Shown here: positions 14,544 to 53,728 of the stretch, one piece after another
Position numbering within the stretch: position 1 is the stretch's first letter
How the letters are laid out: every line of letters begins with the position of its first letter
Assembly: GCA_041650995.1 (NCBI GenBank)
Contig: JBAZJZ010000001.1
Coordinates: 491,302-555,301, forward strand
Reading direction: 5' to 3'
Length of the DNA stretch: 64,000 bases
Origin: Patescibacteria group bacterium
GTDB lineage: Bacteria; Patescibacteriota; Patescibacteriia; XYB2-FULL-38-15
Program-made: the position numbers and the translations under genes
The notes under the pieces: model-generated
What the model was told of the DNA's origin: nothing
The model's database searches: none
What the model saw: only the letters and a program-made list of their open reading frames with translations

Positions 14544-14585
14544 TGCCGCATTGTTATATTGTTACATTATTAAATTGCCAACAAT

Positions 14586-15011: not shown

Positions 15012-15030
15012 TTTTACATCCTTAAAAACT

Positions 15031-16014: not shown

Positions 16015-16124
16015 AACAAATAAATTAAAAGTGTAAAGTTAAAAGTGAAAAATTACAGTTAAAAATTAAAAGTTACAAAATTAAAATCAAAACTTTACAC
16101 TTTTAATTTATAACTTTTAACTTT

Positions 16125-16769: not shown

Positions 16770-16791
16770 AATTTTTAATATTAATTTTAAT

Positions 16792-19700
16792 TTATCTTAC
16801 GGTAAAGTAAATACTGCGTTCTCCGCCAATACTTTCGATTGGCGGCGCTGGTGCCGGAATAACTGGTGAGGAATCAAGTCCAAAGTCAACCGTACCGTCT
16901 AAATTATAAGTAACATTATAATTACCACTCGGCGTTCCACTCACATAAACAATTCTGAGATGATGCCGGCCTCTTGATAAGGTGTTTACTGCTGCAAACG
17001 TTGATCGACAAACTTCATCACCCCACGCACAAACTCTCCACTGGACAACTTTATGATTATCAATGTAAACGTCGAAAATATCATCGTCGACGCCAGTGAC
17101 GCGTAAATTTACTGTCGCACAATTTGTCTCGCCGTCCATACAACCATCAACATTACTATTATCATTTGGATCGCAAGCGTCAATTATTCCGTCATTATCA
17201 GCATCCGGATTTCTCGCACCGCTAGGCCCATATTTTCTATTGTCGCAAGCTTGGCCAGCGGCGCAAGTGATAGCACAAGATGCCGGACTACAAGTCGGCG
17301 CGGCTAAATCATATGGTTTTGCCCAAGGATTTGAAGTATCAACGCAGATCCAATTCGCGGGATAGGCCGGTAAATGGCTATCGCACTGCTCTGTTCCATT
17401 AACTGTACCATCGCCGCAAGTCGGACCGCTTGCAGTTCGCAAGGTGCATTCGCGGCTGCAATAATTGCAAGTTGAACCATATGGCGCCGTGCACGGCGTG
17501 CCATTGACCGCATCTCCGGAATCGCACGCCTCTATTCCGGCTCTTGTAAACCCGTCGCCGCAACGGGAACTTTGACAATTAACGCAAGCATCAGTATTTA
17601 TGTCATTACCATCGTCACATTGTTCGCCACCCTGCACAATTCCGTCACCACATTCCCCTGTCACGGTGCAAGAGCTCCAGCCTTCGTCTTGCCAACGGCA
17701 TTGTCTTATATCACCAGGTATTTCACAATTTAAAGTTCTGACCCTTGGATAACCCGTTCCTGTCTCTGGGGCACATAACAGACATTCCTCACCTGACCCG
17801 CAATCCGCGTTACTTTCACAAATTACAGTATAATAGCTAGGAAGGATTGGACTTTCTGGACTTAAATATTCCTCAACCGGAACACAAACACCTCTTGAGG
17901 AAATTTGATTTCTATCACACTCCTCTTGCGGTTCATCCACCACTGTATTCCCACAATATGGCGCCGAGCCAACACAACCCGCGGCGCAATACGGCGTGCC
18001 GTCAGGTTTTTTTCCATATCGGCCATTATCCGCTCCATCGTCGCACCGTTCACCGTAAGCACTTTGCAAAATTCCATCACCACAATAACCGCCGCTCATT
18101 CGGCAAACCGTGGAGCACTGATATTGATTTGTCGGCAATGTCCCGCCACCCGGAATTCTTCCCCCTCCCGGTCCGCGGTCGCAGGCTTCGCCAGTATCAA
18201 TAATTCCATTACCACAAGTGGCAAGACATGTCCCCCAATCATTCCAGCGGCAAGTAGCTAAATTACAAGTACGGCTTTGGCGGCCGTTTGCGCCGCTCGA
18301 GGCGGTACAAACTTGTTCGTTAACGCGGCATGTTCCGCCGCCACAATCCGCGTCAGTCCGGCAAGAAATTGTCGGATCATTAGAGCACGTATTTGCCAAA
18401 CTTGGTTCGCATTCTTCGCTGGCGTTAATTATTCCGTCGCCGCAAATTCCGCCCACGCTGTAAATTGTGTTATTGCAAACGTCTTCATATTGGATTCTTG
18501 ACGGATGCGCTGCCCGGAACCAATGCCAGCTTGGATTTGTTTCCGGAGGAATCATGTATTCTAAATCACTACCAATATTATAAAATCCCGTTTCTGACTC
18601 ATAACGATATTGATAAATATGCGATAAGCCTGGGCAAACGTAAGACTCTCCACTTGTATTCCAGCAAGTATCGGCGCTGTAAGGATCCAGACAACCTTGA
18701 AATTTATTTAATGGGTCAGTCGGCAAGCCGCCGCCGAGCTCCTGGCCAAGGGTTGCCCAAGAGTCCCATTTGCTAGTGGAAATCCCGCGGACATACGAAC
18801 CCGCTTCCAATTTTGGCGGATAGCCTCGCATGGCCATATATCTTTCCACTGCCTCTTTAATTTTATCCAAATCAGATAAACGCTGGACATCGCGCGCCAG
18901 TTTATCTTTTGGCGAATCACATAAAAATTGTGTCGGAGTTTGTGGACAATCTAAATCCGCTGAACAAGAAATTACCGCGCCATCCGCATCTCGCGCCACG
19001 ACTCCCTCGGCGTTACGGCACACTTTGTTGTTCGCCAAATTAATATTAAATTTCCAATTATCCACTAACTGATTATAAATATCAATCGTGTCTTGGCTCG
19101 CGCCTTCATTATATGAAATTAAATAAACATTTGTATAAATATCCGGTTCGGAACCAGAACCGTCCGCACCTCTCGGTTGATTGGCCGCTGAAACATAAAT
19201 CGTCCGGCCGTCTTCCGCCGCTTGATATTGGTCAATTGTTTTTCCGCCCGAAGCTGATGGCCTGAATCCCTGAGCTAAATACCAATCAAACAAAGCCAGG
19301 TGATTTTTGTTTGTGTAAATTCTAATGCCAATCGCGTCAGACGAGCTTTGACATGAGCCGCCCCCTGGGGCGCAAGGACTTTCCGTGTTGCAAGGAAGTT
19401 TGGAAAGAGTGCAGTAACTTCCGCCGACAAACAAGAAATATTCCCTGAGCAAAAAATCTGTCGAGCCGACAGGCGCGGGCGGATTATTTACAACCGGCGG
19501 ATCGCTAATTGTCGGCAAATCGTCGCCAAAACCAATTTCTCCCCTATCCTGACAATAATATGTTTCAAAGTTATATGTTTCATCAATCAATGCTTCCCCG
19601 GTCACACCAAACCTGTCTGGCCACGGATTTTCACAAAGGAAAACTGTTATGTCGGCTCCGCTGCTTATAACTTTCCCCACGGTGCGCGGCGACAAAACTG

Positions 19701-22700
19701 TATCCGTCGTAATTTTTGCCGAAACCAAAATTCTTGCTTCGCCATTTTTATTTTGCGCTGTCGCTGTCTGGCGCTCGCTAAATTGGCAAATACCCCCTGA
19801 ACCACAATCACTATTTCTATTACATCTAGTTCCTGTTTCAACGCAAGATCCCTCGGGAACCAAGTCAACTACAGTTAAATCGTTGGACAACCAATCCTGC
19901 CATTCCCAGTAATAAACATCCGGAAGGCGAGAAAGCATTCTCCCTCGCGCGTCACGGGCCGTGGCAAGAAATTCATGAGTTTCTTCGCTTCGCGTAAAGA
20001 CATAAGAAGCGGGAGAAACTACTACTTGGCTCAAAGCACAAATACTGCTTCCAGTTTCAAAATCCCACCGATAAATTTCCCTGCCACTATAAGCTTCTGG
20101 ATATTCACCATACAACCTTCCGCCTCCCAAAGCCACACCTTTTGAATTTCTAATTCCTTTAATTTCCGGCGATCCGGGATTATCACCTAAAAGTAAAACT
20201 CTATACCTGCGTCCGCCGTCAAAAGCTTTAGTCGGGCTAAAGCTTGCTTCGGTCACCAAATCACTGCCCTTACTTACAACTGTAGATGACGCCGTTCCTG
20301 GCCAGACACACCATGGAGAGGGCGGAGCGGCGCTCACTGGCCGGCCAAACAATGCTTGGCTTAACTGGTTAATTACATTTTTAACTTGACTCAAAATTTC
20401 TAAATCTTTTTCTATTTTGGAAATCGGCTTGATTAATAATCTCGCGATCGGCACTGGCAGCCATTTTTTTATTTTTTGAACAAAGTGGAAACCACCCGTT
20501 TCTTCTCCGGTCCACAAAGCCAGAGAAGTTGTCCCCTCAGGGCACGCGCCGCCGTAATCGCCAACCACTAAAATATTCCCTGTTATGCTTGCCGTTTCCA
20601 TTATTTGATCAAAAGTCACGGAAATTTTAGCATTGCGGCAGACATCAACCGCTCCGGATTCACAAGCAGTTGCGCCATCCCGAGTAGGATCGCAGTTTGC
20701 TACTTTCGGTTTAAAATAGCAGCAAGTATTCCGACCCACTCCTAGCACACAATCAGCATCACTTGTGCAGGTTTGCGAAGTCGTCCCCTCGCACACATGA
20801 GATGGCATACATGACAAATGAATCGCTCCACAATCTTGTCCGCCGCAGCGCAAAGTTAAATCACCGCTATCAGATTTTCCTTCGGTCTCAGCAAAAATTT
20901 CCGTAGTGCTGGAATTTACTCCGGCAGCCACAGCTTCTGGCGCAAGATCAATTGCTGTTGCCGTTTGGTATGGATCAATTCTCGTATCTCTAACTGTTCC
21001 CTCGTTTAAACAAGTTACGCTGCAACCATCACCAGAAACCGCGTTCCCGTCATCACAATCTTCGCCGCGTTCTACTGAACGATTTCCGCAAACTCCCCCG
21101 CCGGCTACAGATCCTTCGTGCTGACAGATATTATTACATCCGTCGCCCGAACGAGTATTTCCGTCGTCGCAGTCCTCGCCCACGTCAATAACTCTATTGC
21201 CACAATGAGTTGATCCTTCATTTAAACAAGCTCCCGCTCCGCCGCAGGGCGTACCAATTCCTGGCGGACAGCCAGTGCACCCGTCGAGAGAAACTGTGTT
21301 GCCGTCATCACAATCTTCGCCAAATTCTTTTACACTATTTCCGCAAGACGGATAATTATTGTTATTTGTAATCGTCGCTACTCCCGGATCGGCCGAAGTC
21401 CATCTCCAATTGTAGTCCATAACAGAAAGACGCTGACCGATCGGACTGCAAAGATCTGGATTACTAAAAGGCGTGGAAGAATAATTTTGTGTTTCGCCGA
21501 TAAAATTTAAAATTGCATTTTGCGGATTAACCACGACACGATCCACAGTGCAAGGATTGGTATCATCTTTAGTCTTGAAAGACCAAGAGTATGAATTTGG
21601 ACTCCCGACCGGATAATTTAAATCAGTCAAATGAACACCGCTTGCTGATGTTACATCATCGGAAATTACCGCGCGATAAAAAGTATTGGGTAAAAATAGT
21701 GTGCCTGCGGGTGGAGCAATTATTAATTTCTTTGTCGTATCATTATAAGAAAGACCCAAAGGAAGAACTTCTGTCAACGGCCGTGTCCCTTCATTTAAAC
21801 AAGTTATTGTGTTACAACCTGCGGGAAATGGCGAACCATCACAATCCTCACCCTCTTCAATAATTCCATTGCCACAATTTGGTCCGAGATTTCCCTCATT
21901 TAAACAGGTTACGCGATTACAACGCTCCGGAAACGGCACGCCATCGCAATCTTCTCCTGTCTCCCGGCGGTCATTACCGCAATATGATCCATAACGCGCG
22001 TTTGATCCTTCATTTAAACAAGTCTCACTGCAACCATCACCAGAAACCGCATTCCCGTCATCACAATCTTCGCCTGGCTCAAGCACACCATTACCACATT
22101 TCCAAATATAAAGATGAACATTCGCCGCGCTCTCCACGCTCGCCCGATTCATATTTGTATTAAATTCCGCGCCGATTTCCGCGTTAATACAAGCGTCGCT
22201 GCAATTCGGCCAACTATCTTTTACCTTTGGATCAGTAAAATCTATGGTCAAATTTCCCGAGCCAGACTTTATTTCACTCGGAATCTCGCCAGTAATCCGA
22301 ACCGGCGAGCCAACTTCTGTTTCTGCCCGAGCTGTAGCAATGGTACGCGGAGTCGCACTGATTGCAACTACTGCCCTTATAATATCTGATGAAGTCCAGC
22401 GCCAATCATACGGACTACAGTCAATAGTTAGACAAACATCACCGGCGGCGTAACAAAGGCCATTATAATCTTGCGTCGCGTCAACACTCGTCAATGTCAT
22501 TTCATAAGGCAAAACTCCCACCAAACCAATCGCGCAAGTTTCGTCACTGTCGCGAGTTTTAAATTGCCAAACATAGTCCCCGCCTTCCACACCGTCTCGA
22601 TCGCCGTCCAAGAAAAATCCTCCGTCCGGACATCCGACGCCGCCGAGACAACTTTTTATTCCTGTGCCTGCAGCCACATCACTTTTTAAAGTTACTTGAT

Positions 22701-25512
22701 ACCAAGTATTTCGCGCCCAGCTGGTTGCAGGTTGAAAAACAAAACCATCCCGATCAGAAGAAATGGCCTCATGTTGAGGATAAAGCGCTCGCGCGGGTTT
22801 TATAGTTCTGGCTACACATGTTTGGTCAGCGCACTCTTCTACTAAAATATTTTCACTATTTATTGACGCTGAATTTATTTTTGTCGTAAAATGAGCTCTA
22901 ACCTCGGCGTTAACACAAACCCGGTCTCCGCCATCTCGTCCAATCCAGGGCGAGGGAGAAGGCGGTGGCGGTGGCGGATTACTACAACTTTCCACCACTT
23001 GCGGATAAATCGGAAGCTGACCAGTAGAAAATTGCCAGAAATAATATCCTCTACCAGCGGCAGCCGCGCAAGCCACGGCGCAACTGCCATCGCGGCAGCA
23101 TTGCTCCCCCGAAGGACAAGCCGCGCCCGCGCGGCAATCTTGAACTATAAAATTAACGCTATTACCCGTGGCTCCCCCGGAAGTAATATTAACCGGACCA
23201 GTTTGGGCTCCTGTTGGCACGGCCGTAGAAATCTCTGTGCCATCAATCGGCGTAACCGTCGCGGGAGTCGCGCGATAAAAATTAACTAAAGCGGACGCTC
23301 CAAATCTCTCTCCATCAATTCTCACCGGTAAATCAATCGGCCCGTTATCTAGAGTAATTTTACAAATGCCCGGCCCGGCCGTCCCTATATCAACCGTAAA
23401 ATCTGAGGTGGTTAAATCACTTGTATCATCAGACTGGCCGCCCGCGGTTCCCGCGGTTGTAATTTTCAAAACATCTGTTACCGCACCGGCCGGTACCTTT
23501 ACAATAATTTGATCATTTTTCCACCAATCTGCGCCGCAAGCCGCGGGAAAATCAGTCGCGGCTAAAATATCCGCGCCCAAAGCGTTCTTAAAAAATACCT
23601 GACCAGTCGCGTCCCCGAAATTGGCGCCGAAAATCGTCACATACTCGCCCACCGGTCCGTGCGTCGGAGAAAAACTTAAAATTCTCGGAGCGGCGGCCGT
23701 CGCGACAACTCTAAAATTAATTGGATTGCTATTTTGTCCGCCAACCACGACCTGAGCCGGAATGGTCGCCGGAGCAATTAAAGGGACAACCGCGCCAATA
23801 CTTGTGGCCGTCCAAAGAATAACTCGTTCGGCTCGCGTACCGCCAAAAAGAATTTCACTTGTTCCTTGTGTTCCGCCAAATTGTGTGCCGGCAACAACGA
23901 CTTCGAAACGGGGTTCTCCGCTGTCTGGCGTGATGGAACAAATTCCCGGCCGGCTTGTATCATTCACATCAAAATTCGGCAAAACCGGACCGCGTTCATC
24001 ATCAGTTTGGTCAGTGTAGTCGGCCGCAGTCGCGCCGGTTGGCGGTGGAACAACAACTTTAATCGGACCATCAGTCGCACCCGCGGGCACAACCACAATA
24101 ATCTGATTATTTTGCCATGTGGCTGAAGCGGGACAAGCAGGCGACCCAGCTAATACAGTATTAAAATAAACCTGTCCGAGGACATCGCCAAAACCTTCCC
24201 CATAAATTGTCACATAATTTCCCACTGCGCCGTCATTTGGCAAAACCGCGGTAATTGTAGGCAATGTTCGGCAAACCCCGCCAATGCACGTGCCGCTTCG
24301 GCAGTCGGCGCCGCTCGTGCAAGATCCTCCATCACAAGTTCCGCAATCAGCTCCGCCGCAATCAAGTCCGGTTTCGTCTCCATCTTGGCTACCATTAAAA
24401 CAATGTGCCGCTCGGACAATAACATCCACGCCGCCGGAAGTCGTATTATTTGAATCAATATCAAAAGCTTTAGCAGTTAAAGTATGCCGCGAACCAGCCA
24501 CGATGCCGGTCGTATCCCAGTCAAAAATTGAAGAATAATCACGCGGCGTTGGGCCACTTGGCGCGTCTGTGCCGAGCGTTCCGCCATTTGAAAAATATTC
24601 CAAATAAGAAACTCCCGCATCATCAGTGGCGTGCGCTTCAATTGAAACTATTACGTCCGCGGAAACCGATTGCCCCGGATCAGGATAAGTAATTCTCACT
24701 TCCGGTCCGGTCACGTCAACTAAATTTCCTGTTGTAAAATTGGCAATACAATTTGGCGCGAGCCCGCCGCAAACCAAATTTCTGCCATCAGCGCTTCTGA
24801 GCCCTGTTGTCGCTTCCACGGTAAATTCCGTATCCCCATCAAAACACTTTCTATCTTCATTCGGCGCCGGACAATTAGCGCTCGGAGTAAATTCCACGAC
24901 CGTGCCGGAAGCACTCGCCGTTCCGTCCACCAAACTTCCGTCAGTCGTTTTTTTCACGGTTAAATTTCCAGTTAAAGTTGTCGCGTCAACATCTTTATTA
25001 AAGACAACCCGCACAACAACATTACGAATTGGAATCGCGCCATTCGGCTGAATACCGCGAATAACAAAAGAGTCTGAAGGCAAACCACCGCCGCCTCCGC
25101 CTCCACCGCCGCCTCCGCCTCCACCGCCGGGAGTTATGCCAGTCGCTTCCATTAATCTATTTAAAACAAACTGGGTAATCCCAAAAGAAAAAATAATAAT
25201 AATCAAACCAATCACGCCGTTTACCAAAATCTTTTTTGCCTTACTGATTCTTTCTTCATTGCCGGCTGCCGTCATCCAAACAAAACCGCCGTATAAAACA
25301 ATGGCCACAGCCACAATTCCCAAAAACCCAAGCGCCACGCGAATAATCTGCGCTGCGACAACTCGAGGATCTTGGGTTGGCAAAGCGATTTCATTCCCCA
25401 CTTCGTTCACGCCAAAATCCTGGGCAAAAATCGTTGTAGCAAATAAAAATCCACTTGTGATTAAAAACAAGGTGAAAAGGATTTTTAAAATTTTTCTCTC
25501 GTGTGGTTTCAT
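16792..25512 (-). CDS. Giant (2906 aa) cell-surface protein. It has a signal peptide plus two-helix membrane module, a 15-residue poly-Gly linker, IPT/Ig-like domains and more than 10 Myxococcus-type cysteine-rich repeats (CGNGxxExGExCDDGN...DGC).
   Basis: It is a single uninterrupted 8.7-kb ORF. Cys-rich repeats include CGNGVLEPGEDCDDGNAVSGDGCSETC, CGNRVIDVGEDCDDGNTRSGDGC and CGDGIVQGGEQCDDGNDINTDAC. IPT-like segments include ITAVLPNDGAVGNYVTIYGEGFG. The N-terminal module is shared with the ORF at 26494-28383. Confidence 0.85.
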   Translation of the reverse strand: MKPHERKILKILFTLFLITSGFLFATTIFAQDFGVNEVGNEIALPTQDPRVVAAQIIRVALGFLGIVAVAIVLYGGFVWMTAAGNEERISKAKKILVNGVIGLIIIIFSFGITQFVLNRLMEATGITPGGGGGGGGGGGGGGGLPSDSFVIRGIQPNGAIPIRNVVVRVVFNKDVDATTLTGNLTVKKTTDGSLVDGTASASGTVVEFTPSANCPAPNEDRKCFDGDTEFTVEATTGLRSADGRNLVCGGLAPNCIANFTTGNLVDVTGPEVRITYPDPGQSVSADVIVSIEAHATDDAGVSYLEYFSNGGTLGTDAPSGPTPRDYSSIFDWDTTGIVAGSRHTLTAKAFDIDSNNTTSGGVDVIVRAAHCFNGSQDGDETGLDCGGADCGTCDGGSCTSGADCRSGTCIGGVCRTLPTITAVLPNDGAVGNYVTIYGEGFGDVLGQVYFNTVLAGSPACPASATWQNNQIIVVVPAGATDGPIKVVVPPPTGATAADYTDQTDDERGPVLPNFDVNDTSRPGICSITPDSGEPRFEVVVAGTQFGGTQGTSEILFGGTRAERVILWTATSIGAVVPLIAPATIPAQVVVGGQNSNPINFRVVATAAAPRILSFSPTHGPVGEYVTIFGANFGDATGQVFFKNALGADILAATDFPAACGADWWKNDQIIVKVPAGAVTDVLKITTAGTAGGQSDDTSDLTTSDFTVDIGTAGPGICKITLDNGPIDLPVRIDGERFGASALVNFYRATPATVTPIDGTEISTAVPTGAQTGPVNITSGGATGNSVNFIVQDCRAGAACPSGEQCCRDGSCAVACAAAAGRGYYFWQFSTGQLPIYPQVVESCSNPPPPPPSPSPWIGRDGGDRVCVNAEVRAHFTTKINSASINSENILVEECADQTCVARTIKPARALYPQHEAISSDRDGFVFQPATSWARNTWYQVTLKSDVAAGTGIKSCLGGVGCPDGGFFLDGDRDGVEGGDYVWQFKTRDSDETCAIGLVGVLPYEMTLTSVDATQDYNGLCYAAGDVCLTIDCSPYDWRWTSSDIIRAVVAISATPRTIATARAETEVGSPVRITGEIPSEIKSGSGNLTIDFTDPKVKDSWPNCSDACINAEIGAEFNTNMNRASVESAANVHLYIWKCGNGVLEPGEDCDDGNAVSGDGCSETCLNEGSNARYGSYCGNDRRETGEDCDGVPFPERCNRVTCLNEGNLGPNCGNGIIEEGEDCDGSPFPAGCNTITCLNEGTRPLTEVLPLGLSYNDTTKKLIIAPPAGTLFLPNTFYRAVISDDVTSASGVHLTDLNYPVGSPNSYSWSFKTKDDTNPCTVDRVVVNPQNAILNFIGETQNYSSTPFSNPDLCSPIGQRLSVMDYNWRWTSADPGVATITNNNNYPSCGNSVKEFGEDCDDGNTVSLDGCTGCPPGIGTPCGGAGACLNEGSTHCGNRVIDVGEDCDDGNTRSGDGCNNICQHEGSVAGGGVCGNRSVERGEDCDDGNAVSGDGCSVTCLNEGTVRDTRIDPYQTATAIDLAPEAVAAGVNSSTTEIFAETEGKSDSGDLTLRCGGQDCGAIHLSCMPSHVCEGTTSQTCTSDADCVLGVGRNTCCYFKPKVANCDPTRDGATACESGAVDVCRNAKISVTFDQIMETASITGNILVVGDYGGACPEGTTSLALWTGEETGGFHFVQKIKKWLPVPIARLLIKPISKIEKDLEILSQVKNVINQLSQALFGRPVSAAPPSPWCVWPGTASSTVVSKGSDLVTEASFSPTKAFDGGRRYRVLLLGDNPGSPEIKGIRNSKGVALGGGRLYGEYPEAYSGREIYRWDFETGSSICALSQVVVSPASYVFTRSEETHEFLATARDARGRMLSRLPDVYYWEWQDWLSNDLTVVDLVPEGSCVETGTRCNRNSDCGSGGICQFSERQTATAQNKNGEARILVSAKITTDTVLSPRTVGKVISSGADITVFLCENPWPDRFGVTGEALIDETYNFETYYCQDRGEIGFGDDLPTISDPPVVNNPPAPVGSTDFLLREYFLFVGGSYCTLSKLPCNTESPCAPGGGSCQSSSDAIGIRIYTNKNHLALFDWYLAQGFRPSASGGKTIDQYQAAEDGRTIYVSAANQPRGADGSGSEPDIYTNVYLISYNEGASQDTIDIYNQLVDNWKFNINLANNKVCRNAEGVVARDADGAVISCSADLDCPQTPTQFLCDSPKDKLARDVQRLSDLDKIKEAVERYMAMRGYPPKLEAGSYVRGISTSKWDSWATLGQELGGGLPTDPLNKFQGCLDPYSADTCWNTSGESYVCPGLSHIYQYRYESETGFYNIGSDLEYMIPPETNPSWHWFRAAHPSRIQYEDVCNNTIYSVGGICGDGIINASEECEPSLANTCSNDPTISCRTDADCGGGTCRVNEQVCTASSGANGRQSRTCNLATCRWNDWGTCLATCGNGIIDTGEACDRGPGGGRIPGGGTLPTNQYQCSTVCRMSGGYCGDGILQSAYGERCDDGADNGRYGKKPDGTPYCAAGCVGSAPYCGNTVVDEPQEECDRNQISSRGVCVPVEEYLSPESPILPSYYTVICESNADCGSGEECLLCAPETGTGYPRVRTLNCEIPGDIRQCRWQDEGWSSCTVTGECGDGIVQGGEQCDDGNDINTDACVNCQSSRCGDGFTRAGIEACDSGDAVNGTPCTAPYGSTCNYCSRECTLRTASGPTCGDGTVNGTEQCDSHLPAYPANWICVDTSNPWAKPYDLAAPTCSPASCAITCAAGQACDNRKYGPSGARNPDADNDGIIDACDPNDNSNVDGCMDGETNCATVNLRVTGVDDDIFDVYIDNHKVVQWRVCAWGDEVCRSTFAAVNTLSRGRHHLRIVYVSGTPSGNYNVTYNLDGTVDFGLDSSPVIPAPAPPIESIGGERSIYFTVR

Positions 25513-25574
25513 AATCTGGCCACACTAAAAATTATTGATAACCTGAAACTTTAAACTTTTTTGTTATTCTAAAT

Positions 25575-26474
25575 CTATTTTAATGTGAATGTCTTAATAA
25601 TCTGTTTGATTTCATCGGCAATCACAGACCATTTTTGGTTCTCCATCCCCGGCGCTCCTGCAAAATCTCCCGCGCCCTGGTAATAAAATGCGTATTGATT
25701 ATTTTCTTTAATAAAAGTATGAGGATAATCAATATTTTCCGGATCATTTTTGTCTTCCAATCTTACAATATCAATTTTTATCCAACGATCTTTGTTTATT
25801 TTGGAAACGAGATCCATCGCCTTCACAATTTTATCCGCCCCAAGATTTAGGACATCTTTTTCTTCAATCGCTCCCCACTCCACGGGAAAAACCAATGAAA
25901 ATCCATATTCACTATTTGTATAGGTGGTGGGTGTCGTAGCTGGTTTTAAAGTTAACTTAAAAGAATCGCTCTTTGCTTCATCCGGGGCGCAAAATACGCC
26001 GTTTACCCAACTCAATTGATATTCTTGATTTTCATCAAGCGAAACCACGACAAACTCGCTCGGCCAACTTTCCATCTCACCTGTCGGTTCATAAATGATT
26101 TCAAAATTTCCGCCAGCATCAACTTTATCTCCTCCGGTCAAATTTGACGCCATACTCAAACAACTCGGATCCATTTCGGAAACTGGAAATAGCCAAACTG
26201 TATAATTCGGCGTAGCTTTTCCCGTAATTTTTATACCTTCCGGAGAATTTTCCACTGTTGCTCCGCTTAACGGTGAAGTTACAGTCGGTTTAACAATTGT
26301 GGTTTGGACCGAAGCCGATTCTGGCACAGTTGGCTCGGCTTCTTTTGATTCCATATTTTGCCACCAATAAACTCCCCCGCCGACGATAAGAGCCGTGAGA
26401 ACCACGGAAATTAACACCGCAATGACGGGAAATTTTTTAGGACTGGCTGGCTGCGTGATCGGCTGGTTTTCCAT
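25575..26474 (-). CDS. Hypothetical membrane-anchored extracellular protein (299 aa)
   Basis: An N-terminal TM segment is followed by a Thr/Ser/Pro-rich linker. It sits between the two paralogous surface proteins on the same strand. Confidence 0.5.
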   Translation of the reverse strand: MENQPITQPASPKKFPVIAVLISVVLTALIVGGGVYWWQNMESKEAEPTVPESASVQTTIVKPTVTSPLSGATVENSPEGIKITGKATPNYTVWLFPVSEMDPSCLSMASNLTGGDKVDAGGNFEIIYEPTGEMESWPSEFVVVSLDENQEYQLSWVNGVFCAPDEAKSDSFKLTLKPATTPTTYTNSEYGFSLVFPVEWGAIEEKDVLNLGADKIVKAMDLVSKINKDRWIKIDIVRLEDKNDPENIDYPHTFIKENNQYAFYYQGAGDFAGAPGMENQKWSVIADEIKQIIKTFTLK

Positions 26475-26493
26475 AAAATTTTAAATTATAAAT

Positions 26494-28383
26494 TTATTCT
26501 ATTGGCCACGTGCAACCCGCGCCAGTTGGGTCAGTACAACTTGTTCCCCCGGCCGGGCCAATTGGCTCATAAAAACAATTTTGATAAATATCTTTTATTC
26601 TATGCGTTGCCCGCGGAAAATATCTTACAAGCCGCTCAAGAACATCTTCCCCATCGCAAGTCGGCGCCGGAGCGGGCGCCACGGTACTTTCAATAAAATT
26701 TCCATGGTAAATTATGGCTTTGTGTTTTTCCGGCGTTCCTCCACGCGGTGTGGGCGTGCCAAGAGCGTCTGTCCCCTCTCCCCCCAAAGTAAACCAAATC
26801 GCGCATTTTTCTTGCTCGTTGTCGTCCAAAATAATATTCTCCGAAGAAAAACTTGTCACACTCATTTGTTTGCTAAACTGCATTTCAACAGGCGCATCGA
26901 GCGGGACATCGCCTACCTCCGCCGGCACATTGGGCGGACCGGGTTTTACCGCTTCAATCCGCGGCGGAATTAAATCAATTGTATTATTGGTAGAAAAATC
27001 CCAAGGATAATTATCAGCGGTCGGTCCTTCGGCCGTGCCGTTTCCATTGCCATCCAAAGAATTGCCGACGACATCGGTCGTGCCGGTGTAGGGCATTTCC
27101 GCTTCCGGCGGAGTTGTGCCAAGCCGCGCGGCTTTTACGGTCACGGCAATATCCGCATCAGAGGGCAAACAGAAAACATCGCCGCCGCAAGAATTTGTTC
27201 CGCACCGAAAATCCGTTGTAAATTCTATTGTTTTATATTGATTGCCAATTGCCCAAGTACCGGCAACCGGCCCGGGAACTGGCACTCCGTCGGCCAAAAC
27301 TTCAATTTTATCAAATCCTTCTGAAGTTTTTCCGGCCACGGTCGTTGGATCCATGGCTTCATCAAAATTTACTTGTACTAAAATATTTCTGGCATTTTCT
27401 GTCCCATCTCCCGGAATCACGCTTTCCACTTTTGGCGGCGTAACATCAACAAAAGTGCTTACTTCAAAATCCCAGGCGTATCCATCGCCAAACGCGCCGG
27501 TGAACGCATCGCCTCCGTCGGCCTTTTTCAATCCAGGTTTCAATGCTACCGTATACCAAATATTTTCCGACGGACTTCCTAAAAGTTCCGCGGGATCAAA
27601 AGTGAAATTTTTCAAATCAGTGGTAAAACCGACTCTTGCCTGATTTGGCTGCAAAAAATTCTCTGGTTGTGGCGCGCCCGGCGTCGGCGGCGTACCGTAT
27701 TCACCTTGAAGTGATTGATAAATTCTGATATTTTCACTTTTTATCGGTAAAATCGTAGCTGACGTAATAAGTACTCCCCCGAGCGTGTCATCACCAGGAT
27801 TGGCTGGATCGTTAATTTCATAACCTTCAATAATCGTATCCAATGCCATCGGTTCTTTAAAAGTAATAATTACTTTCGTATTTCTCGCGATGCCCGTGCC
27901 GCCGCGCGGCGGATAATGACTTTCAATAATGCTGTTGCCGAGCGCTCCGCTGTAACGGCCCACTGCCGGCGGACCAGTCGGCCCTCCTCCGGGACCACCT
28001 CCGCCCGTAAGCGCACCTATTAAAGTATTTAAAACAAATTGCGTAATGCCAAAAGCCATTAAGATAATAACTAAACCAATTATTCCGTTCGTCAAAATCT
28101 TTTTGGCCGTGGCAATTTTTTCTTCATTCCCGGCCGAGGTCATCCATACAAATCCGCCGTAAAGAACAATGCCCACCGCGATGATTCCCAAAAAACCGAG
28201 CGCCACTCTTACGATTTTAGCGGCGATAACTCGAGGATCGCCTTCTACTAAATTAATCTGATTACCCACTTCATTCAAACCAAAATTTTGAGCTAAAGCT
28301 ATTTGGACAAATAAAAGACTGACCGCGAGGACGGCTAAACAAGCTAAAATCTTTAACGCTTTTTTAACTTGCATGTGCGGCAA
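26494..28383 (-). CDS. Surface protein paralog (629 aa). It carries the same N-terminal signal-plus-two-helix module and Gly/Pro linker as the giant protein, followed by Ig-like beta-rich domains.
   Basis: N-terminal residues about 30-130 are roughly 75% identical to the giant protein (QNFGLNEVGNQI...GFVWMTSAGNEEKI...FGITQFVLN). A GGGGPGGGPTGPP linker follows. Confidence 0.8.
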   Translation of the reverse strand: MPHMQVKKALKILACLAVLAVSLLFVQIALAQNFGLNEVGNQINLVEGDPRVIAAKIVRVALGFLGIIAVGIVLYGGFVWMTSAGNEEKIATAKKILTNGIIGLVIILMAFGITQFVLNTLIGALTGGGGPGGGPTGPPAVGRYSGALGNSIIESHYPPRGGTGIARNTKVIITFKEPMALDTIIEGYEINDPANPGDDTLGGVLITSATILPIKSENIRIYQSLQGEYGTPPTPGAPQPENFLQPNQARVGFTTDLKNFTFDPAELLGSPSENIWYTVALKPGLKKADGGDAFTGAFGDGYAWDFEVSTFVDVTPPKVESVIPGDGTENARNILVQVNFDEAMDPTTVAGKTSEGFDKIEVLADGVPVPGPVAGTWAIGNQYKTIEFTTDFRCGTNSCGGDVFCLPSDADIAVTVKAARLGTTPPEAEMPYTGTTDVVGNSLDGNGNGTAEGPTADNYPWDFSTNNTIDLIPPRIEAVKPGPPNVPAEVGDVPLDAPVEMQFSKQMSVTSFSSENIILDDNEQEKCAIWFTLGGEGTDALGTPTPRGGTPEKHKAIIYHGNFIESTVAPAPAPTCDGEDVLERLVRYFPRATHRIKDIYQNCFYEPIGPAGGTSCTDPTGAGCTWPIE

Positions 28384-28418
28384 AGTTAAATTTTTTACTT
28401 TTGCGTTTTTGTTTTGGT

Positions 28419-28883
28419 TTACTTTTTCTCTAAAAATTCTTTCACCATTTTACTTACCGCGTCTCCGCTTGCTCTTCCGCCGGCCGCCTTCATCACCGCG
28501 CCCATTACTTTTCCAAAATCTCCCGGGCCAGAAGCGCCGAGCTCTTTAATTTTTTCTTCAACGATTTTTCTGAGCTCATCTTCCGGAAGTTCTGCCGGCA
28601 AATATTTTGCCAAAATTTCCATTTCTGATTTTTCTTTTGACGCTAGCTCAGCCCGCCCGCCTTTTTCGTAATCAGCGATCGAGTCTTTGTGTTTTTTGAC
28701 TTCGGAATTTATGACCTTTATTACTTCATCATCTCCAAATTCTTTTCTTCCGCCGGCAATTTCCGCGTTCAAAATCGCGGCCCGAAGCAGGCCGAGGGTG
28801 GAAACCACGGCTTCATTCTTTTCTTTTCGGGCACCAACAAAATCTTTTTCGATTTGTTCTTTCAAAATCATGGTAGAGAACAA
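28419..28883 (-). CDS. GatB/YqeY domain protein
   Basis: The product aligns with the YqeY family (…LGLLRAAILNAEIA… …DFGKVMGAVMK…). Confidence 0.75.
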   Translation of the reverse strand: MFSTMILKEQIEKDFVGARKEKNEAVVSTLGLLRAAILNAEIAGGRKEFGDDEVIKVINSEVKKHKDSIADYEKGGRAELASKEKSEMEILAKYLPAELPEDELRKIVEEKIKELGASGPGDFGKVMGAVMKAAGGRASGDAVSKMVKEFLEKK

Positions 28884-28885
28884 AC

Positions 28886-29137
28886 TTACCTTCTAAATTT
28901 ATTTCTTGTTTCAAACTCGTCTTTGAGTTTGCCGATTTTTTTCAAGTATTCGCGTTTTTTTTTGATTTCCTCGCGGCGAAGCGCTGAAGCGCGCTGCAAA
29001 TTGCGGCTTTTTCCTGATGTATGGAATCTGATTTTTTTCGCTTGCAATAATTTTCCGCTTTGCTGAACGCGACGGCTAAATCTCCTCATCATGCTTTCAA
29101 AAGTTTCTCCCCTTTTTCTTTTTACTTCTTGAGCCAT
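28886..29137 (-). CDS. rpsU: 30S ribosomal protein S21
   Basis: It is a small basic protein whose N-terminus resembles S21 (…RRFSRRVQQSGKL…). Confidence 0.65.
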   Translation of the reverse strand: MAQEVKRKRGETFESMMRRFSRRVQQSGKLLQAKKIRFHTSGKSRNLQRASALRREEIKKKREYLKKIGKLKDEFETRNKFRR

Positions 29138-29191
29138 TCTTTCACCTCTCTTTCTTAAGATTATGATTATTTTATTATATGATAAATTTAA

Positions 29192-30574
29192 TTATTTGAC
29201 CACACCGTTTGTTAATTTCTTTTTCATTTCCTGAACAATCTTAACAAAATCCACGATTTCTTGAGAACCACCCTCCATATCCCTAATGATAATTGTGCCA
29301 TCAAGCACTTCTTTTTGACCTAAAAGCAACGCGTACTTCGCGCCAAGCTTATTGGCAATTTCAAGCTGCTTTTTTAATCCCTCTTTAGTCAAGCCATGAG
29401 TAATATAAAATCCGGCACGACGCAAATCCTCAATCAGGGCAAAACTTTTCTTTCTCGCTTGTTCACCAAGCTGCGCCAAGAAAATATCCGGAACGGTAAG
29501 TGGAGGAACTTCAATGTTGTTTTCTTTTATTTTCAAAATCAACCGTTCCACGCCGAGCGCCACGCCGCAAGCCGGAGTAGGTCGACCACCCAAAATCTCA
29601 ACCAGGTTGTCATATCTCCCCCCTCCACCCAAAGCTTCTAATTTTTGGTCCGTAGCCTGATTTTCTTCAGAAAAAAATTCAAAAACGGTTTTAGTGTAAT
29701 AATCCAGGCCGCGCACAAGATATGGGTTCAAATTATAAGGAACAGCCGCGTCGTCAAGATATTCCAAAACTCGAACAAAATGATTTTTACAATCATCACA
29801 AAGATAATCAACAATTTGCGGCGCACCTTCTTTCAACGGCTCACAACCCGCTTCTTTACAATCTAAAATGCGCAAAGGATTTTTAATTAATCTTTTTTTA
29901 CATTCTTCGCAAAGCGAGCTCCGGCGCTCGCGATAATAATTTACTAATTTATTTTTATAAGACTCACGGCACTTGGAGCAACCAATGCTATTTATCTGAA
30001 CATTAATTTTTAATCCCAAAGACTGGATCAAGTTGTAGGTTAAAAAAATTATTTCCGCGTCAATCACAGCATTGCCATCACCCAAAGATTCAAAGCCAAA
30101 CTGATGGAACGATCGAAGCCGGCCAGCTTGCGGACGTTCATGGCGAAACATCGGACCAAAATAAAAGAATTTTACCGGTTGCGGAAGATTTATCATGCCA
30201 TGCTGAACATAAGCTCTCGCGATAGAAGCCGTTGCTTCGGGCCGCAGACATACATTTTCTCCGCCGCGATCAGTAAAGGTAAACATTTCCTTGCCAACAA
30301 TGTCTGTTTCTCCGCCAACCGCCCGGTTAAATAAAGCTGTTTCTTCCAAAATCGGCGTCTCAATAAATTCATAACCGTAATTATTAGAAAAATTTTCCGC
30401 CCGAGTTTTAACTAAATGCCAATACTTATATTCTCCCGGCAAAAGATCTTTCATCCCCCGAAGCGTCTGAAAAACTCTTGTTTTTTGCGGACCAACAGCT
30501 TTACCTTTTTTCTGCTTTTTAACCGCTACTCGCGGCTTTTTTGCTTTTTTTTGAATTTTTACTTTTTTTGCCAT
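29192..30574 (-). CDS. hisS: Histidyl-tRNA synthetase with a roughly 35-aa Lys-rich N-terminal extension
   Basis: The class II aaRS motifs and the HisRS-specific RGMKD motif are present, along with a C-terminal anticodon-binding domain. The N-terminus begins MAKKVKIQKKAKKPRVAVKKQKKGK. Confidence 0.9.
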   Translation of the reverse strand: MAKKVKIQKKAKKPRVAVKKQKKGKAVGPQKTRVFQTLRGMKDLLPGEYKYWHLVKTRAENFSNNYGYEFIETPILEETALFNRAVGGETDIVGKEMFTFTDRGGENVCLRPEATASIARAYVQHGMINLPQPVKFFYFGPMFRHERPQAGRLRSFHQFGFESLGDGNAVIDAEIIFLTYNLIQSLGLKINVQINSIGCSKCRESYKNKLVNYYRERRSSLCEECKKRLIKNPLRILDCKEAGCEPLKEGAPQIVDYLCDDCKNHFVRVLEYLDDAAVPYNLNPYLVRGLDYYTKTVFEFFSEENQATDQKLEALGGGGRYDNLVEILGGRPTPACGVALGVERLILKIKENNIEVPPLTVPDIFLAQLGEQARKKSFALIEDLRRAGFYITHGLTKEGLKKQLEIANKLGAKYALLLGQKEVLDGTIIIRDMEGGSQEIVDFVKIVQEMKKKLTNGVVK

Positions 30575-30580
30575 ACTTAA

Positions 30581-31216
30581 TTACTGATTATACTCGGGTG
30601 TTTCAAAAACTTTTAACTTATTGAATGGCCAACCCCTAAACCACACCTTACCAACAATACTTTCTCTTTTAATCGGGCCAAAACTTCTTGAATCAAAACT
30701 CGCCAGACGGTTGTCGCCCATTATAAAATACTCGTCCATACCAAGAGAAATCGTCCGATCACCAAAAGTTTTAACATCATCATCTAAATAGTCTTCTTCA
30801 AGGCGTAATCCTTCTCGATTTTCGCTGTTAAAAACCGTAATTTTTCCGTCTTTTATTTCCAGCGTCTCGTTAGGTAAACCAAGAATTCTTTTTATAAAAT
30901 ACTGGCTCGGGTCCCGCGGATATTTGAAAACCACAATATCTCCCCTTTCCGGTTCGTTAAAGCGATAACTTATTTCATTAATAATCAAATATTCATGATC
31001 GAAAAAATTCGGCTCCATGGACGCGCCCTTGACGTAAAACGGCTGGATTAAAAAATATCGCACCGGCACGATGATGGCCAGAGAAATCAAAATCACCTTT
31101 ATTATTTCCAACGTATACTCTGTAAAACGCTTTATAGTATTTTCTTTTTTAATTTGATTTCCGGATTCTACCGGCGGTTCAGCTTGTTCGGGTAAATTTT
31201 TATTTAATATTGGCAT
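30581..31216 (-). CDS. lepB: Signal peptidase I
   Basis: S26 motifs are present: GASMEPNF (catalytic Ser), and GDNR..S.DSR near the C-terminus. Confidence 0.85.
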   Translation of the reverse strand: MPILNKNLPEQAEPPVESGNQIKKENTIKRFTEYTLEIIKVILISLAIIVPVRYFLIQPFYVKGASMEPNFFDHEYLIINEISYRFNEPERGDIVVFKYPRDPSQYFIKRILGLPNETLEIKDGKITVFNSENREGLRLEEDYLDDDVKTFGDRTISLGMDEYFIMGDNRLASFDSRSFGPIKRESIVGKVWFRGWPFNKLKVFETPEYNQ

Positions 31217-53719: not shown

Positions 53720-53728
53720 AAATAATTT

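Follow-up and report, generated by a model that had tools for sequence, protein, structure and literature searches.

Why do two proteins of very different length, encoded by neighbouring genes of a Patescibacteria chromosome, begin with the same module, and how could this module attach them to the cell? Patescibacteria (CPR) are ultra-small bacteria that account for much of bacterial diversity and seem to live attached to host cells. We addressed the question in a 64-kb stretch of this chromosome (the window), for which an earlier note had proposed that the module resembles TrbC/VirB2-type pilins. Both open reading frames were confirmed on the minus strand, at 26494..28383 (629 aa) and 16792..25512 (2906 aa). 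For the shorter one, a TTG start at 28383 gives 629 aa and an ATG at 28374 gives 626 aa; the ATG is the start called by NCBI (MFA5128874.1), and the TTG lies 9 nt upstream of it. The 626-aa protein is referred to here as P600 and the 2906-aa protein as the giant protein.

A common N-terminal module in two neighbouring genes

That both proteins have an N-terminal module in common proved to be real: BLASTP of P600 against the giant protein gave E = 6e-47, and strong similarity was limited to the N-terminus. The identity of about 75% that had been reported for residues 30-130 was slightly generous, as 74% (67 of 91 positions) is reached only in the mature core of 91 aa, from A↓Q to FVLN (the arrow marks the cut), and residues 30-130 in the 629-aa numbering give 69% (70 of 101). 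The described layout, on the other hand, was recovered in full. Both proteins have a signal peptide with a cleavage motif, two hydrophobic helices separated by a short basic loop, and a Gly/Pro linker, which reads GGGGPGGGPTGPP in P600 and consists of 15 consecutive Gly in the giant protein. The cut expected at AQ(D/N)FG is predicted after ALA in P600 and after IFA in the giant protein, corresponding to A↓Q(N/D)FG. At the DNA level, the two modules are 73% identical, with 55% identity at third positions and a longest exact run of 12 nucleotides, and 42% of the identical residues are encoded by different codons; the similarity is thus maintained at the protein level. Recent duplication or gene conversion of the two modules was ruled out by the third-position identity and the short identical run. 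When the six-frame translation was searched locally with an HMM, only these two module copies were detected in the window. The coordinates are given in Table 1.

Table 1. Location of the pilin-module genes, their parts and neighbouring genes in the window
Feature	Position	Strand	Remarks
P600 gene, pilin-module/Ig-like protein	26494..28374	-	exact match to MFA5128874.1 'Ig-like domain-containing protein'
P600 signal peptide, residues 1-28 (MQVKKALKILACLAVLAVSLLFVQIALA)	28291..28374	-	predicted signal peptidase I cut after ALA
P600 mature pilin module, residues 29-123	28006..28290	-	PF18895 at residues 53-117, AF2, hydropathy
P600 module, acidic N-tail		-	
P600 module, helix 1	28141-28236	-	
P600 module, loop TSAGN	28126-28140	-	
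P600 module, helix 2	28006-28125	-	
P600 Gly/Pro linker (GGGGPGGGPTGPPAVG)	27958..28005	-	AF2 pLDDT below 50 at residues 123-139
P600 predicted extracellular region, residues 140-626	26497..27957	-	beta-rich Big_5/Ig-like chain, Cys-containing C-terminal part
Giant pilin-module protein gene, 2906 aa	16792..25512	-	Pfam PF18895, Big_5, Big_7, TIG, DUF4215
Giant protein, predicted signal peptide, residues 1-30 (…ATTIFA↓Q)	25423..25512	-	
Giant protein, mature pilin module, residues 31-124	25141..25422	-	PF18895 at residues 56-116
Giant protein, linker (GITP, then 15 Gly, then L)	25081..25140	-	
Giant protein, predicted extracellular region, residues 145-2906	16795..25080	-	
299-aa gene between the two pilin-module genes	25575..26474	-	single N-terminal TM; NCBI WC445_02790
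Two TSP3 (Ca-binding) repeat single-TM proteins, downstream	16125-16769 and 15031-16014	-	Pfam TSP3_bac
Signal peptidase I gene	30581..31216	-	Pfam Peptidase_S26 E 1e-42; 2.2 kb upstream of pair

P600 matches PF18895 and PF13205 (Big_5, E 7e-15) in Pfam and has at least 120 full-length orthologues with identities of 38-85%. Its full-length AF2 model (pLDDT 80.9) consists of the hairpin, a disordered linker and a beta-rich ectodomain with pLDDT mostly 80-97; helices are located at residues 3-27, 47-78 (47-79) and 84-123, the two module helices having pLDDT values of 81-94. The giant protein contains TIGR02232 cysteine-rich acidic repeats and 144 Cys, its orthologues are approximately 30-35% identical, and the hydropathy segments of its module lie at residues 49-84 and 89-121. 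A resemblance of residues ~2200-2345 of the giant protein ('…ARDVQRLSDLDKIKEAVERYMAMRGYPP…') to type IV pilin or pseudopilin head domains found no support, Pfam being empty there even at E<=10.

The 299-aa gene between the two genes is lineage-specific and occurs in just one of 82 related loci (L013). Conserved TSP3 genes follow the giant gene on its 3' side in about a dozen loci with sequence reaching there, and the two found here are possibly part of the same envelope block as the pair. Between 14 and 31.6 kb, promoter and terminator predictions were about as numerous as in shuffled sequence, and the scan placed no intergenic terminator between the genes; beyond being compatible with co-transcription, it is uninformative.

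Relationship of the module to VirB2/TrbC pilins

The proposed relationship to pilins was supported by the comparison with TrbC/VirB2 and related profiles. Both whole proteins exceed the gathering threshold of PF18895 (T4SS_pilin, 26.6 bits), with 33.4 bits for P600 and 28.0 bits for the giant protein, and the isolated modules score 36.9 and 33.2 bits, respectively, with 37.5 bits in a second scan. PF04956 (TrbC, threshold 27.9 bits) remains below threshold in the window proteins, with 10.5 bits for the 629-aa protein and 15.7 bits for the isolated module of the giant protein (E 0.018-0.75), though the match is colinear over its full length. We aligned the two window modules with 41 homologues (stand-alone pilins). 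PF18895 is matched by all 43 sequences and PF04956 by 25 of them at E<=0.1 (best 3.6e-7). Twelve columns of this alignment are invariant and are shared by both window modules, since both belong to it; P600 accordingly retains the family-invariant residues. Among the invariant polar residues and motifs are D-P-R as well as T79, G82 and N83 inside the loop W-M-T-A-A-G-N-E-E. Stand-alone CPR pilins of 115-215 aa are 46-67% identical to the module.

As a reference for VirB2, a profile was built from seven genuine VirB2/TrbC sequences whose genes all lie between virB1 and virB3; its anchor is the solved T-pilus structures PDB 8cue/8exh. Comparison by hhalign gave a probability of 89.3% (E 2.1e-6) for the mixed module profile and 88.7% (E 2.6e-6) when the profile was restricted to 154 fused modules. 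The alignment covers only the end of the signal peptide and helix 1 up to W-M; within this stretch the D-P motif is matched, and the A↓Q site of the module falls on AAA↓Q48 of VirB2, its experimentally known processing site. The opposite outcome, a simple uncleaved signal anchor with no relation to pilins, was not observed. The module profile matched no pilin among PDB sequences, the sole match being an unrelated oxidoreductase (E 0.35), and a fold search with the module returned only generic helical hairpins. The fold comparison is uninformative, since a helical hairpin resembles many unrelated hairpins. An assignment to type IV pilins or pseudopilins was ruled out, as neither protein has the prepilin-peptidase motif G↓F-T/S-L-I-E in its first 60 residues; a Pfam N_methyl or T2SSG match was not obtained either.

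PF18895 proteins typically comprise ~115-145 aa, and the window proteins with 626 and 2906 aa lie outside that range. An exhaustive HMMER search for the module family yielded 63,746 cluster representatives, at least 20,049 of them at E<=1e-10. Among the best 150 of these 63,746 matches, 23 are single-module proteins of more than 500 aa, always with the module at the N-terminus; Big_5, TIG and Laminin_G_3 lectin-like domains are found in their ectodomains. The fusion of a pilin module to a large protein is therefore a recurrent architecture of the family. The contrary impression that fusions are rare was an artefact of a word-index search with the isolated module, which yielded hardly anything but proteins of 115-215 aa and missed even the identical full-length protein; it was corrected by the exhaustive search together with a full-length query.

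Predicted membrane attachment, conservation and possible roles

In the explanation that we favour, with a probability of roughly 60% for the whole, the pilin-module hairpin serves as the membrane anchor of the ectodomains and may also connect these with pilin assemblies. Both genes would encode Sec-exported proteins, the first ~95 mature residues forming a VirB2/TrbC-like PF18895 module. Signal peptidase I would cut at (A/V)-x-A↓Q and leave the module as a helical hairpin in the cytoplasmic membrane, with the N-terminus outside, the loop W-M-T-(A/S)-A-G-N-E-E-K/R toward the cytoplasm and the C-terminus outside. The charges of the module (+3 in the n-region, -3/-4 in the mature N-tail and +1/+2 in the loop) fit such an N-out, loop-in, C-out topology. 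The enzyme encoded in the upstream block SPase I-HisRS-S21-YqeY, which it heads and which precedes the pair in 63 of 82 loci, is likely to process the modules. The flexible Gly/Pro linker would hold the ectodomain outward, comprising ~490 aa with Ig-like folds in P600 and ~2,760 aa with Ig-like, TIG and cysteine-rich repeats in the giant protein.

The hairpin would be the sole membrane attachment of both proteins. Besides the signal peptide and the two helices, only residues 564-592 of the giant protein form a hydrophobic stretch, which was judged to be a beta-strand within a TIG domain. Hydropathy and motif scans of the giant protein found no further TM segment, LPXTG motif or C-terminal anchor. 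Neither protein has an LPXTG-like motif near the C-terminus or a C-terminal hydrophobic segment, which rules out an assignment to sortase-anchored LPXTG adhesins, and no SLH domain was found in the window proteins by Pfam.

Relatives are encoded in at least 577 GTDB species representatives. In approximately 70 of 82 loci, a gene for ~600 aa is directly followed by one for 1,500-3,650 aa with the N-terminal module, and the pair is located between rpsU-yqeY and ybeY-dgkA-ftsA, in the conserved order SPase I-HisRS-S21-YqeY-[pair]-TSP3-YbeY-DgkA-FtsA. P600 and the giant protein form a gene pair that is inherited vertically and is a fixed part of the core genome in many Patescibacteria. Across orthologues, conservation amounts to 67% in helix 1, 72% in the loop and 62% in helix 2, compared with 33% in the signal peptide, 44% in the linker and 41-59% in the ectodomain; no part of the protein is better conserved than the hairpin. 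Within genomes, the P600 and giant modules are on average 50% identical. In 26 of 70 genomes, none of the 70 giant modules is closer than the one from the same genome; of the orthologous P600 modules that other genomes encode, a median of only 9% lie closer. The modules of the two proteins co-vary within a genome, with no recent gene conversion between them.

The fused modules probably keep the intramembrane or assembly contacts of stand-alone pilins, as the invariant residues are kept, conservation is above that of the ectodomains and the modules co-vary within genomes. The proteins could then be the base, the tip or sparse subunits of a surface structure made of pilins and tether adhesive or structural ectodomains to it. 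Counting against the favoured explanation, a C-terminal load of 500-2,800 aa is sterically incompatible with packing of every subunit as in a VirB2-type filament. Since the ectodomains are conserved and not variable, a structural envelope role fits at least as well as that of a host-specific adhesin.

The hairpin might instead have been co-opted as a plain two-helix anchor for core proteins of the envelope, for instance those of an S-layer-like coat or a spacer, with no interaction with pilins or a T4SS. We consider this a real, though minority, possibility. A Pfam scan of 43 of the larger ORFs of the 64-kb window (to 55,021) detected none of VirB3, VirB4, VirB6, VirB8 and VirD4, and VirB4, VirB6, VirB3 and VirD4 were also missing within 10 kb of the pilin arrays examined. 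The pair is inherited vertically among housekeeping and cell-division genes, the best structural match is an S-layer protein, and both ectodomains are conserved, nearly full length among P600 orthologues and over more than 90% of the length in ~40 of 69 giant orthologues. However, hairpin and loop are the most conserved parts (62-72% identity, against 33% for the hydrophobic segment of the signal peptide), every residue that is invariant in stand-alone pilins is retained, and the two modules co-vary. Such constraint and co-variation argue against a generic anchor, which should not be so constrained.

It is improbable that the N-terminal segment stays on the protein as an N-in signal anchor, giving three membrane spans and likewise an external C-terminus. 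The cut is a prediction, the h-region is long (about 20-25 residues) and the ectodomain would be outside in that case too. Against this stand the features of the site itself: across 203 aligned modules, position -1 is Ala in 191, -3 is Ala or Val and +1 is mostly Gln, a helix-breaking Pro is found at about -5/-6, and the site aligns with the known VirB2 processing site. The 33% conservation of the signal-peptide region, compared with that of the hairpin, is as expected of a discarded segment. Very improbable is a role of the proteins as precursors, in which the Gly-rich linker would be a processing site, the ectodomain would be released and an ordinary small pilin would stay. C-terminal processing occurs in the TrbC family, the trimming of RP4 TrbC being the analogy here, and stand-alone pilins stop about ten residues past helix 2, exactly where the linker starts. 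However, no protease or recognition motif was identified, the linkers are poorly conserved (44%), other fusions have different linkers, and nine dedicated small pilin genes are most likely already present in the genome. That the Pfam match merely reflects two hydrophobic helices is hardly credible: weak spurious matches to other TM families (FixQ, DUF898, XK-related) and the fold and PDB searches without a pilin are outweighed by scores over a curated threshold, invariant polar residues and motifs, a VirB2 register that is consistent in two independent profiles including the cleavage site, an independent sub-threshold likeness to Mycoplasma ICE pilin-like conjugal transfer proteins, and the number of cluster representatives matching at E<=1e-10.

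An identical copy of the protein WC445_04625, whose name carries the locus-tag prefix of this MAG, is encoded on an ENA contig within nine tandem PF18895 genes. This array sits upstream of rpoBC, and the complete genome of a close relative has the same array. The MAG most likely carries this separate tandem array of nine small pilin genes. It is a tentative and in our view rather unlikely extension that P600, the giant protein and the nine-pilin array make up a surface organelle that is fixed in the chromosome of Paceibacteria-type Patescibacteria and passed on vertically, and in which VirB2-type hairpins would polymerise or anchor and some subunits would covalently bear adhesive or structural ectodomains. 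To our knowledge, experiments have yet to reveal a pilus made of PF18895 pilins in a CPR bacterium. If the organelle existed, it would provide the 'missing adhesins' of the CPR T4SS-like apparatus, the first T4SS-type pilin fused to its adhesin and the first pilin of conjugative origin to be domesticated for a core structure of the envelope, next to cell-division genes.

VirB2-like pilin arrays are common in CPR, where PrgB-like adhesins were undetected (PMC12102498), and T4SS-pilin genes are highly expressed in Paceibacterales co-cultures (PMC10936435). A six-gene array of VirB2-like pilins is essential in Southlakia epibionticum (PMC10633639). T4SS-like genes and such arrays are essential in the one CPR species tested genetically, and T4SS-associated adhesins are not known from these bacteria. 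A review speaks of the 'potential to elaborate conjugative pili' and no more (PMC12857230). The gene pair, which is undescribed in the literature searched and recurs in hundreds of related species, offers two concrete and very widely conserved candidates, with a pilin module joined to Ig-like, lectin-like or cysteine-rich ectodomains. Its fixed core-genome position and the covalent fusion make the role of CPR VirB2-like pilins directly testable. In addition, the annotation improves for proteins now named only 'Ig-like domain-containing protein' or 'hypothetical'.

Comparison with known systems

The top Foldseek match of the P600 model in the PDB is the S-layer protein SbsC of Geobacillus stearothermophilus (4uic/4uj6; E 3.7e-7 for 4uic), likewise an elongated Ig-like chain, followed by Ig-domain chains. 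The TM-score of this match is only 0.15 at 10% identity, and no SLH or cell-wall-binding domain was found in the window proteins, which would be attached by the hairpin instead. Pam pili of Ca. Mycosynbacter amalyticus (bioRxiv 10.64898/2026.03.03.709456) are also CPR-specific and Sec-exported and have Ig-like folds. However, Pam pilins, which occur in Saccharimonadia and Microgenomatia, polymerise through donor-strand exchange, with chaperones that have a C-terminal TM helix as their anchor, and the paper does not mention VirB2 or T4SS; Pam pilins have no VirB2-like hairpin, and an assignment to Pam pili was ruled out. The VirB5 tip protein and PrgB-type adhesins are a plausible functional analogy only, as an adhesive surface part tied to a T4SS or pilus, and no sequence relationship of the window proteins to either was found. 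VirB5 is a separate polypeptide and PrgB is LPXTG-anchored, whereas in the window proteins the pilin module and the putative adhesive part form one covalent chain.

The module also resembles the pilin-like conjugal transfer proteins of the Mbov_0395 family from Mycoplasma ICEs (NF045849). The similarity extends along the whole 80-residue model (E 1e-8 and 2e-7), at 34.3 and 30.4 bits and thus below the 40-bit cutoff; Mbov_0395 proteins are small and ICE-encoded and belong to monoderm conjugation. With canonical TrbC/VirB2 pilins (Agrobacterium VirB2, 8cue/8exh; RP4 TrbC), the modules have in common a long signal peptide cut before Gln, the D-P motif and a two-helix hairpin whose loop is charged and whose two ends lie on the outer side, the cut and the topology being predicted in our case. 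In contrast, the window genes score below the gathering threshold of PF04956, lie outside any virB operon and belong to a monoderm host. VirB2-type pili usually contain bound phospholipid, and T-pilin and RP4 TrbC undergo head-to-tail cyclisation; the large C-terminal fusion of the window proteins rules out such cyclisation and uniform filament packing.

Among the nearest known systems are the PF18895 pilins of Patescibacteria. Published CPR pilins are small, stand-alone and usually discussed beside virB4, and the literature searched on CPR VirB2-like pilins does not mention pilin-ectodomain fusions. The window modules, unlike these, make up the N-terminal 4-20% of proteins of 626 and 2906 aa, encoded by a fixed core-genome pair with no T4SS gene in the 64-kb window. 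Both groups nevertheless belong to the same phylum and the same Pfam family, with several paralogues per genome, and have the signal peptide, the A↓Q site, the two helices and the conserved loop in common.

The shared N-terminal module and its carriers

The sequences of P600, the roughly 600-residue member of the gene pair, and of the giant 2906-aa protein resemble each other (BLASTP, E = 6e-47) almost wholly within the first ~125 residues. Both start with a basic n-region (+3) and a hydrophobic core closing in ALA|Q or IFA|Q, followed by an acidic mature N-tail (-3/-4) with a D-P-R motif. Helix 1 closes in …LYGGFVWM, the inter-helix loop is short (T-S/A-A-G-N), helix 2 opens with E-E-K/R…AKKIL, and loop plus flank carry a net charge of +1/+2. 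The Gly/Pro linker reads GGGGPGGGPTGPP in one protein; that of the other has 15 consecutive Gly. All elements described in the earlier note (signal peptide, A|Q cut, two helices, short basic loop, Gly/Pro linker) are present in both proteins, and its estimate of roughly 75% identity comes close to the measured 74% over the mature core (67/91) and 69% over residues 30-130 (70/101). In nucleotide sequence the modules share 73% identity, with just 55% at third codon positions and a longest common run of 12 nucleotides; it is therefore selection at the protein level that keeps the resemblance. Recent duplication or gene conversion as its source is ruled out by the same third-position identity and run length. 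A six-frame translation of the window, searched locally with an HMM, yielded exactly two copies of the module.

Neither an LPXTG motif nor a type IV prepilin motif was found in either protein. P600, already deposited in public databases under an uninformative name, was modelled with AF2 as the 626-aa product on 38 orthologues (pLDDT 80.9, pTM 0.71). In the model, residues 47-78 and 84-123 form the hairpin and 123-139 a disordered linker; the ectodomain is beta-rich and modelled with confidence, its top PDB match being the S-layer protein SbsC, followed by Ig-like domain chains, and its Pfam domain Big_5. In the giant, Pfam detects Big_5, Big_7, TIG and DUF4215 and NCBIfam cysteine-rich acidic repeats; it contains 144 cysteines. 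One further hydrophobic stretch (giant residues 564-592) was judged to be a beta-strand inside a TIG domain and not a membrane span. Giant residues ~2185-2395 (window 18331-18963, minus) hold a segment '…KDKLARDVQRLSDLDKIKEAVERYMAMRGYPPKLEAG…DPLNKF…YQYRY' that is conserved in the orthologue P0262 and has no Pfam match even at E<=10; it may resemble the opening part of the globular head in a type IV pilin/pseudopilin, minus the hydrophobic helix.

Features of the window and of related loci and proteins
Feature	Position	Strand	Remarks
IS200-like Y1 transposase ORF	679-1164	minus	Pfam Y1_Tnp E 6e-7; window edge, otherwise housekeeping region
Two single-TM proteins with thrombospondin type-3 (TSP3, Ca-binding) repeats, 3' of giant	15031-16769	minus
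Giant gene	16792..25512	minus	ORF, 2906 aa
Gene between P600 and giant genes	25575..26474		299 aa
P600 ORF	26494..28383	minus	629 aa from TTG
P600 as called by NCBI (MFA5128874.1)	ATG at 28374	minus	626 aa
Two class II aminoacyl-tRNA synthetase genes, Asp/Asn/Lys type, tandem	52328-55021	minus	463 + 430 aa
Nine-gene PF18895 array between solute-binding-protein gene and rpoB-rpoC	L093 7457-12263; L005 7496-12200		121-289 aa
P0242			820 aa; eight tandem hairpins, no internal signal peptides
P0290			1775 aa; concatenated hairpins
P0281			1147 aa; concatenated hairpins

Relation to T4SS pilins

The Pfam family PF18895 (T4SS_pilin) matches P600 with 33.4 bits and the giant with 28.0 bits, both above the gathering threshold of 26.6; the alignment to PF04956 (TrbC/VirB2) is colinear and its score sub-threshold. 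When the two window modules were aligned with 41 stand-alone homologues (A1), PF18895 was matched by 43/43 and PF04956 by 25/43 sequences (best E 3.6e-7). The reference set for VirB2/TrbC comprised seven genuine plasmid proteins, each encoded between a virB1-type lytic transglycosylase gene and virB3, and its profile matches the solved T-pilus structures 8cue/8exh. Against this set, hhalign gave a probability of 89% (E 2e-6) for A1 and of 88.7% for a profile of 154 fused modules only; the predicted A|Q cut falls on the VirB2 processing site AAA|Q48, D-P on D-P, and helix 1 is aligned through W-M. In NCBIfam, sub-threshold similarity to 'pilin-like conjugal transfer' proteins of Mycoplasma ICE was seen; a PDB sequence search and a fold search with the hairpin model were both uninformative. 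The observation of the earlier note is thereby confirmed and its reading as kinship to TrbC/VirB2 supported, by the above-threshold PF18895 scores and the hhalign result against genuine VirB2/TrbC. Judged by sequence, the module is a PF18895 member and a remote VirB2/TrbC homologue, not a canonical PF04956 pilin.

Of 1.84 billion cluster representatives, an exhaustive HMMER search matched 63,746 at E<=1e-3, of which 20,049 also pass E<=1e-10. The top 150 matches include 23 one-module proteins of more than 500 aa (the longest 3,647 aa), always with the module N-terminal and with ectodomains that include Big_5, TIG and a lectin-like Laminin_G_3 domain. Other matches carry 2-17 concatenated hairpins after one N-terminal signal peptide (e.g. 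P0242, P0290 and P0281); these 'poly-pilins' suggest that hairpins pack side by side, and could represent an unrecognised class of polytopic membrane proteins. A word-index search with the 124-aa module, the length distributions of which are biased for domain-sized queries, delivered short proteins only and missed the identical 626-aa protein.

A 122-aa PF18895 pilin, WC445_04625, shares the MAG locus-tag prefix of the window. An identical copy lies on an ENA contig as one of nine pilin genes (122-233 aa) that stand in tandem close upstream of rpoB-rpoC; a close relative with a complete genome has this nine-gene array as well. From array and window pair together, a total of at least 11 module-bearing genes is most likely for the lineage, all in housekeeping neighbourhoods. 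Certain array pilins have C-terminal extensions of 80-170 aa; with the 600-aa and 3,000-aa proteins added, the extensions form a series graded by length.

A conserved pair in a housekeeping neighbourhood

The window is a piece of Patescibacteria (CPR) chromosome, encoding FtsZ, FtsA, YbeY, DgkA, HisRS, signal peptidase I (SPase I), S21, YqeY, EngA, Pth, DprA, TopA, RelA/SpoT, ParAB, ScpAB, Lon and two tRNA-synt_2-family (D/K/N-class) aminoacyl-tRNA synthetases. P600 has no fewer than 120 full-length orthologues (38-85% identity), nearly all with PF18895 and Big_5, in Falkowbacteria, Uhrbacteria, Parcubacteria and others, and at least 577 species encode a relative in a scan of one genome per GTDB species. 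In ~70 of 82 loci the ~600-aa gene is directly followed by a gene for 1,500-3,650 aa opening with the same module; the remaining loci are mostly cut by a contig edge. Of the 82 loci, 63-71 have SPase I, HisRS, S21 and YqeY upstream; on the downstream side, two TSP3-repeat membrane proteins, YbeY, DgkA and FtsA follow where the sequence extends that far. The intervening 299-aa gene is confined to the window and its closest relative. Homologues of the giant share ~30-35% identity and ~40/69 span >90% of its length; by these alignments they form an orthologue set, not a variable cassette.

The pair sits inside rpsU-yqeY … ybeY-dgkA (window ~14178-31216, minus; loci L001-L092), with SPase I and HisRS upstream and FtsA-FtsZ downstream, and this synteny is very stable among distant Patescibacteria. 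We take these surroundings to resemble the rpsU-yqeY…ybeY-dgkA-era cluster of Firmicutes. The TSP3 gene pair recurs between giant and ybeY-dgkA-ftsA in about a dozen related loci and may be part of the same envelope module. G+C is 0.45-0.50 over both pilin-module genes (window 16001-28000) against ~0.36-0.42 in the flanks; because the synteny is deep, the probable cause is amino-acid composition (Gly 11.6%, plus Ala, Pro, Cys and Asp) and not foreign origin. Many public MAGs with this clearly patescibacterial locus (L014, L017, L020, L023 and others) are titled 'uncultured Gammaproteobacteria bacterium', apparently through systematic mislabelling within a single submission series.

Predicted mechanism and known systems

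Among orthologues, mean identity to the window P600 reaches 67% for helix 1, 72% for the loop and 62% for helix 2; the signal peptide (33%), the linker (44%) and the ectodomain (41-59%) stay below this. All residues invariant in stand-alone pilins are kept in the fused modules. Within one genome, the modules of P600 and giant share 50% identity on average, more than the orthologous modules of most other genomes; a median of just 9% of foreign orthologous modules are closer than the own partner, and in 26 genomes the best match out of 70 giant modules is that of the same genome. Both modules co-evolve within genomes, and since a purely greasy anchor should not show such conservation and co-variation, the pattern argues for specific contacts, common to small pilins and between both proteins. 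It is strongly predicted that both proteins would be exported by Sec and cleaved by SPase I, and that the hairpin would lie N-out / loop-in / C-out, rooting the ectodomain in the membrane; the hairpin probably associates with a pilin-based assembly.

A VirB2-like filament cannot bear a C-terminal load of 500-2,800 residues on all of its subunits, and such a load rules out the cyclisation known for T-pilin and TrbC. T4SS components were absent from the 43 larger window ORFs scanned and VirB4 from 10 kb around the arrays examined, and in these regions the pair could not be connected with any T4SS ATPase or channel gene. No PF18895 pilus is known from experiments, and a review writes of a 'potential to elaborate conjugative pili' (PMC12857230). 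A co-opted hairpin that only holds a structural envelope component, e.g. an S-layer-like coat, is a real if lesser possibility; the conserved ectodomains and the core-genome position of the pair speak for it, the conservation and co-variation of the hairpins, unlike those of a plain greasy anchor, against it. An uncleaved three-span topology is unlikely; across 203 modules, position -1 is Ala in 191, -3 Ala/Val and +1 usually Gln. Proteolytic release at the linker is quite improbable, and chance similarity to pilins hardly credible.

The module family itself is already known. VirB2-like pilins and their arrays (2-11 genes) in CPR were published from PF04956/PF18895 searches that detected them in 1,948 assemblies, and PrgB-like adhesins were not found in CPR (PMC12102498). 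The Southlakia pilin array is essential (PMC10633639), and T4SS-pilin genes belong to the highly expressed unknowns of Paceibacterales-methanogen co-cultures (PMC10936435). The open-access literature text searched holds no description of a pilin module fused to large ectodomains or of the P600-giant pair. New is that two large surface proteins of very wide conservation have a VirB2-like pilin module as their putative N-terminal membrane part, together with the fixation of their genes as a core-genome pair adjoining signal peptidase and cell-division genes and the co-evolution of both modules within genomes. The recently reported Pam pili, which use donor-strand exchange and do without the VirB2 hairpin, are distinct from the P600/giant system.
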